64,000 bases of DNA from Candidatus Atabeyarchaeum deiterrae (GTDB lineage: Archaea > Asgardarchaeota > Atabeyarchaeia > Atabeyarchaeales > Atabeyarchaeaceae). Where the stretch lies: assembly GCA_037310415.1 (NCBI GenBank), contig CP147780.1, positions 416,001 to 480,000 on the forward strand, read 5' to 3'. The notes beneath the pieces were generated by a model that was given only the letters and a program-made list of their open reading frames with translations, made no database searches and was not told where the DNA came from. The first letter of the stretch is position 1, and each line of letters begins with the position of its first letter. Below, piece after piece: positions 46,554 through 49,500 of this stretch. Both the position numbers and the translations under genes were made by a program.

Positions 46554-49500
46554 ACGCCAACGCCGCCTGGGGGATGGCTAGGCTTGGGCGCTGAGGAAGG
46601 CCGTGGCAAGCTGCGATAAGCCTCGGGTAGGCGCATGCAGCCCGTGATCCGAGGATGGCCGAATGGGACTTCCTGATTAAGGTCAATAACCTTAATCGCT
46701 CCCGCAAGGGAGTGGGAACTCCCCGAAGTGAAGCATCTCAGTAGGGGAAGGAAAAGAAACTAACAAGGATTCCCTGAGTAACGGCGAGCGAAACGGGAAG
46801 AGGGCAAACTGAATCCTGCAAGGAAACTTGTAGGAGATGTAGTGTTACAGGACCCAGCTGCCACCTCTTCGAGGAAGCTGAAATACATGGAATTGTATAC
46901 CTCAGAGGGTGATAGTCCCGTAAGCGTAACTCGAAAAGTGTTGGGCCGGGTATCCTGAGTACCGTGGGTCAGTTATCCCGCGGGAAGTTGGGAGGTACCG
47001 ACTTCCAACCCTAAATACGTCCCAAGTCCGATAGCGCACTAGTACCGTGAGGGAAAACTGAAAAGTACCCCGGAAGGGGGGTCAAAAGGGCCTGAAACCA
47101 GGCGGTTATAGACGGGCGCGGCCTAAAAGGGTAGAGTCTCCCTGAAGGAACCTGGGGTGACCCAGCAGTACGAAGGGAGAGGACCAGGGTTGCGCCATCC
47201 GTCTTGAAACACGGGCCGGGGAGTCCACGCTTGTGGCGAGCCTAAGGAGGTAAAGCTCCGTAAGCAAAGGGAAACCGAAACGCCCGCAACCAGCTTAATT
47301 GCTGGCGAGGGGCTGGGTCTGAAAGGGCCTGGAGTCACAGGCGTGGGACCCGAAGCTGGGCGATCTAGCCCTGGCTAGGACGAAGCCAGACGAAAGTCTG
47401 GTGGAGGTCCGCAAGGGTGCTGACGTGCAACTCGCTCCCCTGAGCTGGGGCTAGGGGCAAAAAACCAATCTAGCCCAGGGATAGCTGGTTCCCTCCGAAG
47501 TAGATCGCAGCCTAGCCTGGCTGGAGGTTGCTGATGGGGTAGAGCACCGATTGGGAGGCCACGGGATCGAAAGATCCCACTTTCCTATCAAACTCCGAAC
47601 CTATTAGCGCCGTAGAAGGCCAGAGACGGGTGCCGACGGATAAGCTGTCGGACCGAGAGGAGAACAATCCAGACCGGGGTTAAGGTCCCAAAGTGCCGGC
47701 TAAGTGTCAAACCAAAGGGTGTCCGCAGCCTTAAACAGCAGGGGAGTAGGCTTAGAAGCAGCCATCTCTCAAAAAGTGCGTAACAGCTTACCTGCCGAGG
47801 TTGTGGGCCCCGAAAATGGACGGGACTAAAGCCGGCCACCGATACCCCGGGACACGGTGAATGCCGTGATTCGGTAGGGGGGCGTTCCGGTTGGGTCGAA
47901 GCTGAGCCGTGAGGTTCAGTGGACCGATCGGAAGTGAAAATCCCGGTGGTAGTAACAACGAAGCCAGGTGAGACTCCTGGCCGCCGAAGGGGCTCGGGTT
48001 CCTCGGCAACGCGTCGTCAGCCGAGGGTCAGTCGATCCTAAAGCTAAGCGTAACTCGCTTTAGCTGAAAGGGAAACTGGTTTATATTCCAGTACCATGGA
48101 GGTACGATTGCGGCGACGCTAAGCTTGGTCCCTGACGCTTTTGGGTAGGTTGAACAGGGTCTTCGCCTTGTTTAAGTGTATAAGCCTAGGGAGGGCTGTA
48201 AAAGCGAGAACTAGGCGAAAGCACGAATAGCCGCCCGTTTAGGGTGGTTCAGCCGATCCCGGGAGCCCGTGAAAAGGGGATCAAGAAGGATCCTCCATGT
48301 CCGTACCTAGAACCGACACAGGTGCCCCTAGGTGAGAAGCCTCAGGCGTATCGGAATAAACTCAGGCAAGGGAAATCGGCAAATTAGCCCCGTAACTTTG
48401 GGATAAGGGGTGCCTGAAACTTTTGGCTTAAAAACCAGGGGTTTTAGGTCGCAGTGACTAGGGAGGCCTGACTGTTTAATAAAAACATAGCTTCCCGCAA
48501 GCCCGCAAGGGTGTGTACGGGAGGTGAATCCTGGCCAGTGCAGGTACGTTAAGCCTGGTTCCAACCGGGTGAAGCGCCTGTAAACGCCGGGAGTAACTAT
48601 AACTCTCTTAAGGTAGCCAAATGCCTTGTCGGACAAGTACCGACGTGCATGAATGGAACAACGAGGTCTCTACTGTCCCTGCCTGGGGGCCGGTGAACCC
48701 ACGTAACCTGGCGAACGGTCCAGGAACTCCCAAGGGGAAAAGAAGACCCCGTGGAGCTTTACTGCAGCTTGGTGCGGGGGTGCGGTTGTAGTTGCAGAGC
48801 GTAGTCGGGAGCCGTTAATACCAGTCTTTTCGGGGACTGGCTAGGCGCCAATGCCACACCGACCTTTTATGACTGTATCCCTAACCGGGGGTTACCCCGA
48901 GACAACGCTAGGTGGGCAGTTTGGCTGGGGCGGCACGCCCTTGAAAAGGTATCAAGGGCGCCCAAAGGTCGGCTCAACCGAGACAGAAACTCGGCGTAGA
49001 GGGCAAGGCCAAAAGCCGGCCTGACTGAATCCTGAAGAGCAAAGGATGCAGAGGCGAAAGCCGGGCCTAGCGATCCTTCATGTCCTCCTCGGTGGGGGCT
49101 GGAGGTGACAGAAAAGTTACCCCGGGGATAACAGAGTCGTCGCGGGCAAGAGCCCATATCGACCCCGCGGCTTGCTTCCTCGATGTCGGCTCTTCCCATC
49201 CTGGAGGTGCAGCAGCCTCCAAGGGTAGGGCTGTACGCCCGTTAAAGGGGAACGTGAGCTGGGTTTAGACCGTCGTGAGACAGGTCGGGTTTTATCTCTT
49301 GGGAGTGCGCGGTCGCCTGAAGGTAAGGTACCCTCAGTACGAGAGGGCAAGAGTGCTGTGTGCACCTGCTCCGTAAGAGGAACGGGGTGCCGTGGCCTCT
49401 GGTATACCGGTTGTCCGAGCGGGCAACGCCGGGCAGCTAAGCCGCAAGTGATAAGGGCTGAAAGCATCTAAGCCCGAAACACAACCTGAAAAGAGGCGAC

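Follow-up and report, generated by a model that had tools for sequence, protein, structure and literature searches.

A predicted 34-nt BHB mini-intron at the alpha-sarcin bond of the 23S rRNA sarcin-ricin loop in Atabeyarchaeia

The 23S (LSU) rRNA gene of Atabeyarchaeia-2, a soil Asgard archaeon, carries an insert of 34 nt that interrupts the GAGA tetraloop of the sarcin-ricin loop (SRL) between G2661 and A2662, at the alpha-sarcin bond. We consider it very likely that this insert is an ORF-less archaeal BHB intron, which would be excised by the tRNA-splicing endonuclease, with the exons then joined by RtcB to rebuild the SRL. Judging from the sequence, the insert almost certainly has to be removed and the exons rejoined before the ribosome can work. 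The reading as an ORF-less SRL intron in need of removal rests on the anatomy of the insert, its conservation in six assemblies, the single LSU gene, the presence of genes for EndA and RtcB, and four further inserts in a sister genome; both the occurrence of cleavage and ligation and the enzymes responsible for them are what we infer from this material.

The gene lies in a window of 64,000 nt, by which we mean the whole stretch of DNA that was analysed, and it gives the one match to RF02540 across the complete 2.76-Mb genome. At the SRL, the gene has 37 nt where the Rfam archaeal LSU model has 3, which amounts to a 34-nt insertion after AGUACGAGAGG. The insertion was placed at 49344-49377 in a MAFFT alignment of six Asgard LSU genes, three of them non-Atabey. 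The E. coli numbering used here was anchored on the alpha-sarcin G2661-A2662 bond as given in PMC2896532. Both the Rfam model and the alignment bear out the sequence-only reading of this DNA, which had described a 34-nt interruption of the near-universal SRL; its statement that no homing-endonuclease ORF is present holds as well, as the insert is too short for any ORF. Since there is a single LSU gene, an uncorrected SRL would leave the genome without a functional copy. The features of the locus are collected in Table 1.

Table 1. Features of the 23S rRNA gene and of the predicted SRL intron, in positions of the window.
Feature	Position	Strand	Basis
23S (LSU) rRNA gene	46549-49663	+	Rfam RF02540, 2836.6 bits, model positions 1-2987, end-to-end alignment
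5' exon end AGUACGAG = E. coli 2654-2661, last base G2661	49336-49343	+	cmscan alignment, sequence
Central BHB helix, exon strand UACG (U2656-G2659)	49338-49341	+	pairs with 49372-49375 in MFE and centroid folds; invariant in 6 sequences
5' bulge AGA, predicted cut 49343/49344	49342-49344	+	3-nt bulge between central and inner helices (MFE); cut from register test
34-nt ORF-less BHB mini-intron (predicted)	49344-49377	+	insertion vs Rfam model and vs three non-Atabey Asgard LSU genes
Intron hairpin	49345-49371	+	retained in folds of four sequence variants
Inner helix GGGCA/UGCUC, 5 bp with one G-U	49345-49349 with 49367-49371	+	fold
Apical stem GUGC/GCAC	49353-49356 with 49362-49365, loop 49357-49361	+	fold
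Central BHB helix, intron strand CGUA	49372-49375	+	MFE and centroid folds, register test, six-sequence comparison
3' cut site AG/A, predicted cut 49377/49378, relaxed, within 2x4 internal loop	49376-49378	+	MFE fold
3' exon start AGGAAC (A2662 onward)	49378-49383	+	cmscan alignment, sequence

The predicted fold of the insert and its flanks agrees in most respects with what the sequence-only reading had proposed. The UACG of the 5' exon pairs with the CGUA close to the 3' end of the insert, and the GGGCA/UGCUC stem is formed, both as claimed. That reading had also drawn two AG^A bulges. Both AGA are present and the one at the 5' side is a true 3-nt bulge, but the 3' AGA falls in a 2x4 internal loop of the MFE fold, because no Watson-Crick exon-exon helix adjoins the central helix. 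Set against the strict BHB criterion, the fold has a 4/4 Watson-Crick central helix, a canonical 5' bulge and a 5-bp inner helix, with 0 bp in the adjacent outer helix; as modelled, the motif is a relaxed (HBh'-like) one and falls short of the strict form.

The cutting register could be narrowed down further. The insert can be placed in six registers that are equivalent in sequence, only one of which has the 4/4 central helix together with the 5-bp inner helix. This register, register 0, joins AGUACGAG to AGGAAC (...UACGAG/AGGAAC...), which is the universal SRL, and the other registers fail the BHB rule. The earlier claim that the standard cuts regenerate the GAGA tetraloop is thus upheld: cuts placed after the second base of each AGA would give the universal SRL, with GUACGAG/AGGAACGG as the predicted spliced junction. 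Among 200,000 shuffled versions of the insert, 0.1% combined, in the required register, a 4-bp central helix with an inner helix of 3 bp or more. The fold of the 81-nt region exceeds that of shuffled sequences in stability by a modest margin only (z = -1.76). BHB geometry alone was dropped as evidence; a loose scanner found 157 such geometries in the LSU gene, and they are common in structured rRNA. The weight rests on the combination of an insertion that the universal consensus lacks, a single register that restores this consensus, and a motif that is conserved in relatives.

The genome encodes the enzymes that such a splicing route would call for. There are two PF01974 (EndA) genes, scoring 103.9 and 70.4 bits, and one for RtcB at 582 bits. 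The two EndA paralogs lie near 215557-215811 and 625628-625888 of contig C1 of the genome. Among solved structures, one EndA is closest to the catalytic subunits of crenarchaeal heterotetramers (3p1z_B, E=1.9e-46), and its paralog also matches the structural subunits 2zyz_A and 3iey_B. The endonuclease is probably a crenarchaeal-type alpha/beta heterotetramer tolerant of relaxed motifs. Given the relaxed 3' site and the missing canonical exon-exon helix, cleavage would depend on a broad-specificity endonuclease of this kind, an activity presumed from homology. In the precursor we envisage, the 4-bp central helix would be made up of U2656-G2659 of the SRL and the 3' end of the intron. EndA would then cut after the second base of each AGA, and RtcB would join G2661 to A2662, so that the GAGA tetraloop would be rebuilt and the bulged-G motif could form; the 34-nt hairpin would be released, probably as a circle. 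Wetland and peat metatranscriptomes contain at most 0.46 of the sampled words, and such word shares alone are uninformative on splicing.

The same 34-nt length and the same BHB core are found in six assemblies: the present genome (G000), that of Atabeyarchaeia-1 (G001, CP147779.1), a third genome (G002), and three metagenome contigs from another study, which are 88-91% identical to the window. The six sequences represent four variants, with five variable columns at intron positions 6, 7, 15, 18 and 34. None of the 42 exon columns varies across the six assemblies, and the flanking SRL matches the universal consensus. The core helices are likewise invariant in the six sequences; the changes at positions 6, 7, 15 and 18 are confined to the loop and internal bulges, where they shift the pairing register or add a pair. 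In G002 the 3' cut site reads AAA in place of AGA; its SRL is restored in registers 0 to +3, and the BHB rule is kept only in register 0. The BHB core of the six sequences shows no fully compensatory base-pair change, and this invariance speaks neither for nor against pairing. The SRL intron is the only LSU intron common to both genera of the family, and its BHB core is kept over 88-95% rRNA identity. Most likely, the intron was already in the common ancestor of the family.

The sequence-only reading had suggested a survey of LSU genes for insertions at this site. Carried out within Asgard, the survey turned up the 34-nt insert in the six assemblies of the family and in none of the other genomes searched. 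There is no SRL insertion in 22 other Asgard LSU genes that were read directly. Of 400 Asgard genomes scanned with a sequence pattern, G000 and G002 alone gave a match; G001 was missed because another intron breaks the anchor of the pattern. SRL inserts of 43-73 nt, sought by a pattern with strict anchors, were found in none of 231 Asgard genomes. A loose gapped pattern was also run over genome contigs, and among the matches listed only Atabeyarchaeia-1 lay in an rRNA context, the rest being chance, bacterial ones. For metagenome contigs, a pattern designed for both the spliced and the unspliced form gave three intron-bearing matches and one without the intron. The intron-less contig was considered as a spliced form or a case of intron loss and rejected; its identity of ~72% over the 3' region of the 23S gene marks it as another lineage. 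A protein-database search with the minus-strand ORF that spans the intron yielded no spliced form; its matches were a DNA form like that of Atabeyarchaeia-1 (P0001) and, from other archaea, ORFs without the intron.

The insert is not the only one of its size in this lineage. The LSU gene of Atabeyarchaeia-1 has four further mini-inserts of 33, 49, 32 and 106 nt, all at conserved sites and each with one BHB-compatible register, for a total of five LSU mini-introns. Three of these extra inserts lie near 23S positions that appear in a list of endonuclease insertions in CPR bacteria (PMC11270868), their placement having been read from the flanks. A BHB-like insert likewise interrupts the valS gene of this window. 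ARAGORN flagged introns in 20 of the 24 tRNAs that it found, and the genome paper gives 92-95% of tRNA genes with introns, often at non-canonical positions (PMC11291895). Inserts of 22 and 25 nt in the RNase P RNA and an extended variable arm were tried as BHB introns and rejected; they offered no boundary-matching register and were treated as ordinary extra helices.

Several other explanations of the insert have to be weighed. An assembly or sequencing artefact, or a pseudogene copy, is effectively refuted by the occurrence of the same insert in three GTDB genomes and in three contigs of another metagenome study, by the long reads that validated the curated genomes according to the genome paper (PMC11291895), and by an LSU gene that is full-length, high-scoring and single-copy. 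It is highly improbable that the insert stays unspliced, either retained as an extension of helix 95 or excised without ligation to leave a fragmented 23S rRNA. There is a bacterial precedent for the latter, as some bacteria excise intervening sequences from their rRNA without ligation. Here, however, the insert replaces the GAGA tetraloop, and a broken G2661-A2662 bond is the very lesion by which alpha-sarcin inactivates ribosomes (PMC2896532). Moreover, the genome has no second LSU gene, and the SRL flanks are invariant in the six assemblies while the insert varies, a pattern to be expected only where selection acts on the joined SRL. An expansion segment or retained intervening sequence was rejected on like grounds, with the insert sitting inside the invariant GAGA tetraloop and the exon flanks universal where the insert varies. 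A group I intron was rejected as well, the Rfam scans of the window having given no group I match and the insert having only 34 nt; so was a mobile LAGLIDADG intron, for which these 34 nt hold no endonuclease ORF.

Other readings concern where the intron came from and why it is kept. The hairpin could be what is left of a homing-endonuclease intron, which would now destroy the recognition site of such elements and protect the site from them, a shielding effect that the sequence-only reading had also suggested; we regard this as unlikely. SRL DNA is a real homing target, since CPR bacteria carry group I introns with LAGLIDADG_1 genes at 23S position 2657 (PMC11270868), and in Thermoproteales short hairpin BHB introns are found alongside endonuclease-encoding ones, at identical or neighbouring 16S sites (PMC4496867); the position of the three Atabeyarchaeia-1 inserts mentioned above points the same way. 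On the other hand, no long or ORF-bearing SRL intron appeared in the Asgard genomes scanned, by scans that spanned inserts of ~12-73 nt only. Elsewhere in the genome the intron has only chance-level matches of 10-12 nt, with neither a second copy nor a relative, so it is not a dispersed repeat; and the tiny introns spread through tRNA and protein genes argue for a mechanism of gain that is free of endonuclease genes. It appears quite unlikely, too, that the intron is retained as the functional checkpoint which the sequence-only reading had proposed, that is, to make SRL formation dependent on EndA and RtcB, with late splicing as a licensing step that readies the pre-50S for translational or assembly GTPases and so gates ribosome maturation, in a lineage that is close to the eukaryotic stem and has BHB introns in protein-coding genes as well. 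The sharing of the SRL intron, alone among the LSU introns, by both genera with its BHB core kept would be in line with such a role. So would the make-up of the central helix, whose exon strand consists of SRL nucleotides, such that the bulged-G motif cannot form before splicing, and the finding that in E. coli, once the SRL is deleted, 50S assembly stops at a late stage and assembly factors are trapped (PMC11912913). But with many BHB introns in tRNAs and one in valS a special role is unneeded, the BHB core has to be conserved for viability even in an intron of no use, and all the other Asgard LSU genes read directly, as well as the scanned genomes, manage without the intron. In a genome with so heavy a load of BHB introns, in tRNAs and in valS, it is simpler to suppose that introns spread genome-wide and that this one has persisted neutrally: the BHB intron in the SRL probably persists since its precise deletion from a single-copy gene is rare, and not for a function of its own.

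Few known RNA elements are as conserved as the SRL or tolerate change as little. With an intron at the alpha-sarcin bond, every ribosome of this organism would rely on the tRNA-splicing enzymes for an intact GTPase-activating centre, and the reported tRNA-intron load of Atabeyarchaeia would be extended to the functional core of the ribosome. The locus offers a compact, conserved and single-copy substrate for studying how relaxed BHB motifs are recognised and how rRNA splicing is timed against subunit assembly. On the practical side, mini-introns of this kind can disturb rRNA annotation, the design of primers and probes, and rRNA-based phylogeny in the clade.

Short ORF-less BHB introns in rRNA are a known kind, described from Thermoproteales; no earlier report of one at this site or in this lineage was found in the literature searched. 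The SRL region itself is interrupted in CPR bacteria, by group I introns at 23S position 2657 (site 23IS14; Tsurumaki et al. 2024, PMC11270868), and as with the present insert their removal is needed for function. Those introns, however, are bacterial self-splicing ribozymes of hundreds of nucleotides, often with LAGLIDADG_1 genes, whereas the Atabeyarchaeia insert has 34 nt, lies at 2661/2662, is without a ribozyme core or ORF, and would depend on protein enzymes. The LAGLIDADG-encoding BHB introns in the rRNA of Desulfurococcales and Thermoproteales (reviewed in PMC4496867) are alike in having a BHB core at the junction and in their choice of conserved rRNA segments, and differ from the present insert, which has no endonuclease ORF, no sign of mobility and no other genomic copy.

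Closer parallels are the short rRNA introns of Thermoproteales (Jay & Inskeep 2015, PMC4496867). Like the Atabeyarchaeia insert, they are ORF-less and smaller than ~50 nt, fold into a simple hairpin with a BHB motif at the junction, and occupy strongly conserved stretches of rRNA; their removal, too, is expected to rely on the tRNA-splicing endonuclease and RtcB. They are found in the 16S rRNA of Thermoproteota, whereas the insert described here is in the 23S rRNA of an Asgard archaeon, in the SRL tetraloop at the alpha-sarcin bond, and has a relaxed 3' site. The tRNA introns of Atabeyarchaeia and Freyarchaeia (Valentin-Alvarado et al. 2024, PMC11291895) are likewise tiny, lie at non-canonical positions and have relaxed BHB motifs; they occur in the same organism and are presumably handled by the same enzymes. 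That paper deals with tRNA introns only, the term '23S' being absent from its main text, whereas in the present case the host RNA is the factor-binding loop of the ribosome.

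The archaeal rRNA operon in the window, on the + strand, carries the 16S and 23S genes, and an RNase P RNA gene is also present (see the table). [quoted passage not shown] A MAFFT alignment of the window's LSU gene with five other Asgard LSU genes placed it at 49344-49377. The window's gene has no other insertion relative to the three non-Atabey genomes aligned. Both alignments thus bear out the SRL insertion that a sequence-only reading had proposed. The host genome is complete, a single contig of 2,756,679 bp, and has one LSU gene.

When the region 49320-49400 was folded, the minimum-energy and centroid structures both contained the UACG/CGUA helix and the GGGCA/UGCUC stem that had been picked out by eye. 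The same reading had posited two AGA bulges. The 5' AGA is indeed a 3-nt bulge; the 3' one falls in a 2x4 internal loop, because no Watson-Crick exon-exon helix adjoins the central helix, and the modeled bulge-helix-bulge (BHB) motif is relaxed rather than strict. Since AG and AGG recur at both junctions, six cutting registers yield an identical product, and only one of the six combines a 4/4 central helix with a 5-bp inner helix. In this register the cuts fall 3' of the second base in each AGA and rebuild the SRL sequence, ...UACGAG/AGGAAC..., just as had been suggested. The predicted exon junction is G2661/A2662 (E. coli numbering), which is the bond that alpha-sarcin cleaves (PMC2896532).

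Positions of the rRNA operon features, the BHB elements of the SRL insert and the extra 23S inserts of the Atabeyarchaeia-1 genome (window coordinates or their equivalents)
Feature	Position	Strand	Source or context
16S rRNA	44111-45608	+	Rfam scan
23S rRNA	46549-49663	+	Rfam scan
RNase P RNA	49834-50233	+	Rfam scan
Central helix, UACG paired with CGUA	49338-49341 with 49372-49375	+	MFE and centroid folds
5' bulge AGA, 3 nt	49342-49344	+	MFE and centroid folds
Second AGA	49376-49378	+	MFE and centroid folds
Inner helix GGGCA/UGCUC, small GUGC/GCAC stem-loop on top	inside insert	+	MFE and centroid folds
33-nt insert, Atabeyarchaeia-1 LSU	48482/48483		3' of CUGUUUAAUAA
49-nt insert, Atabeyarchaeia-1 LSU	48609/48610		...CUCUUA/AGGUAGC
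32-nt insert, Atabeyarchaeia-1 LSU	49176/49177		GGCUUGCU/UCCUCGAUG
106-nt insert, Atabeyarchaeia-1 LSU	49276/49277		within GUCGUGAG/ACAGGU

Of 200,000 shuffled versions of the insert, 0.1% formed, in the required register, both a 4-bp central helix and an inner helix of 3 bp or more. A loose BHB scanner, on the other hand, returned 157 BHB-like geometries in the window's LSU gene, so BHB geometry by itself is weak evidence. The case rests on three facts combined: the universal consensus lacks the insertion, the consensus is restored by one register alone, and relatives keep the motif.

A 34-nt insert occupies this place in all three genomes of the family. It is also found in three contigs of a separate metagenome study; their identity to the window is 88-91%, and downstream they are partly syntenic with it. 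Direct reading of another 22 Asgard LSU genes showed no insert at the SRL in any of them. A pattern scan for SRL inserts of 12-42 nt in 400 Asgard genomes matched only the window's genome and G002, the third genome of the family; as many of those scanned are incomplete and may lack rRNA, this negative applies to the genomes searched. The Atabeyarchaeia-1 genome (G001, CP147779.1) was missed because another intron breaks the pattern's anchor. No other copy of the SRL intron was found in its own genome. Both genera share the intron, which was probably inherited from the ancestor of the family.

The six insert sequences represent four variants with five variable columns (intron positions 6, 7, 15, 18 and 34). 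The 42 exon columns are all invariant, although in the three metagenome contigs the search pattern fixed part of each flank. The changes sit in internal bulges or the loop, or are accommodated by one extra pair or a shifted register, and the hairpin and BHB core are retained. The intron of G002 ends in A rather than G; two ambiguous registers are thereby lost, and the BHB register is unaffected. Invariant universal flanks beside a varying insert are what selection on the joined SRL would be expected to leave. A contig of another archaeal lineage (Ga0164311_10008551), only about 72% identical to the window in its 23S 3' region, has SRL flanks of 16 nt and 17 nt identical to the window's and no intron.

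In the genome's only LSU gene, the insert displaces the GAGA tetraloop, and because the central helix uses U2656-G2659, the bulged-G motif is unable to form in the precursor; removal of the insert would therefore be required. It is by breaking the G2661-A2662 bond that alpha-sarcin kills ribosomes (PMC2896532). The genome encodes RtcB and two genes of the tRNA-intron endonuclease family. One product, of 238 aa, is nearest to the catalytic subunits of the Aeropyrum, Sulfolobus and Pyrobaculum heterotetrameric enzymes (3p1z_B, E=1.9e-46); the other, of 198 aa, has weaker matches, the structural subunits 2zyz_A and 3iey_B among them, and by our own reading seems to lack the catalytic histidine. 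Alpha/beta heterotetramer endonucleases accept relaxed BHB motifs, a tolerance that would fit the relaxed 3' site. The spliced form was not found by two indirect routes, a scan of metagenome contigs and a protein-database search with an intron-spanning ORF. We conclude that the only 23S gene holds a genuine and conserved BHB mini-intron at its alpha-sarcin bond, and that this intron is very probably spliced.

Introns are plentiful in this lineage. The paper that describes two complete Atabeyarchaeia genomes, obtained from wetland soil in California, reports introns in 92-95% of tRNA genes, often at non-canonical positions; 23S introns go unmentioned in it, and "23S" is absent from its main text (PMC11291895). 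ARAGORN with intron search flagged an intron in 20 of 24 tRNAs of the window's genome. Upstream of the 16S gene lies a tRNA-like gene (about 43686-43800, +) that starts GGGCCGGUAGUUCAG and ends ...CCACCA; it was missed by a default ARAGORN run, has a weak, partial Rfam match only (43729-43788, 29.7 bits), and is probably a multi-intron tRNA. The LSU gene of Atabeyarchaeia-1 has four extra mini-inserts in conserved 23S segments, all missing from the window's gene, and in each of them a 4/4 central helix and an inner helix of 4-10 bp occur together in one register only. G002, of the same genus, is without the 32-nt and 106-nt inserts, so these two are young or were lost in G002. A same-phylum genome (G003) has a 30-nt insert at the site of the 49-nt one (...CUCUU/AAGGUAGC). 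Within the window, valS (40877-43379, +) is split into overlapping ORFs, 40877-41152 and 41112-43379; removal of 31 nt (about 41151-41181) gives a single 823-aa frame, ...GIDRNGLPIE... (FPMGIDRNGLPIEVQ). With 3/4 central pairs and a 4-bp inner helix in its best register, the valS insert is a BHB-like intron in an mRNA.

Other length differences were seen nearby. Near the 3' end of the 23S gene, a 59-nt segment (about 49506-49564, +) falls between positions 2882 and 2883 of the Rfam LSU model and has no counterpart in its consensus. We take it to be the helix 98/ES39 region; since the MAFFT alignment flags no presence/absence block there, it appears common to all six Asgard genes compared, and it was rejected as an intron in favor of an ordinary expansion. 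The RNase P RNA gene follows the 23S gene after 171 nt, on the same strand, an arrangement kept in a related metagenome contig (L158). Its 400 nt exceed the 288 positions of the model: P3 and the variable arm hold extra segments, and a 25-nt hairpin lies near the 3' end. No BHB register could be fitted to any of these.

Both functions imagined for the intron in the sequence-only reading are speculative. Splicing of the SRL might gate ribosome maturation: the intron sequesters SRL bases, and in E. coli, late 50S assembly is blocked when the SRL is deleted (PMC11912913). Against such a checkpoint, the intron is missing from all other Asgard genomes searched, and the organism has many BHB introns, the one in valS among them; moreover, once an essential gene present in one copy has a fixed intron, the splicing signals must be kept, useful or not. 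The insert has also been imagined as a shield of the site against mobile elements, and it could be a remnant of one. Endonuclease-bearing group I introns do occur at position 2657 in CPR bacteria (PMC11270868). Scans of Asgard genomes, which spanned inserts of about 12-73 nt only, turned up no SRL intron with an ORF.

In the papers searched, no report turned up of a BHB intron in the SRL, nor of rRNA mini-introns in Atabeyarchaeia. Short (<50 nt), hairpin-forming BHB introns have been described in the 16S rRNA genes of Thermoproteales (PMC4496867), and the kind of element is therefore already known. The Atabeyarchaeia insert shares this short hairpin-forming character and differs in residing in the SRL of 23S rather than in 16S; both the site and the lineage are new for elements of this sort.
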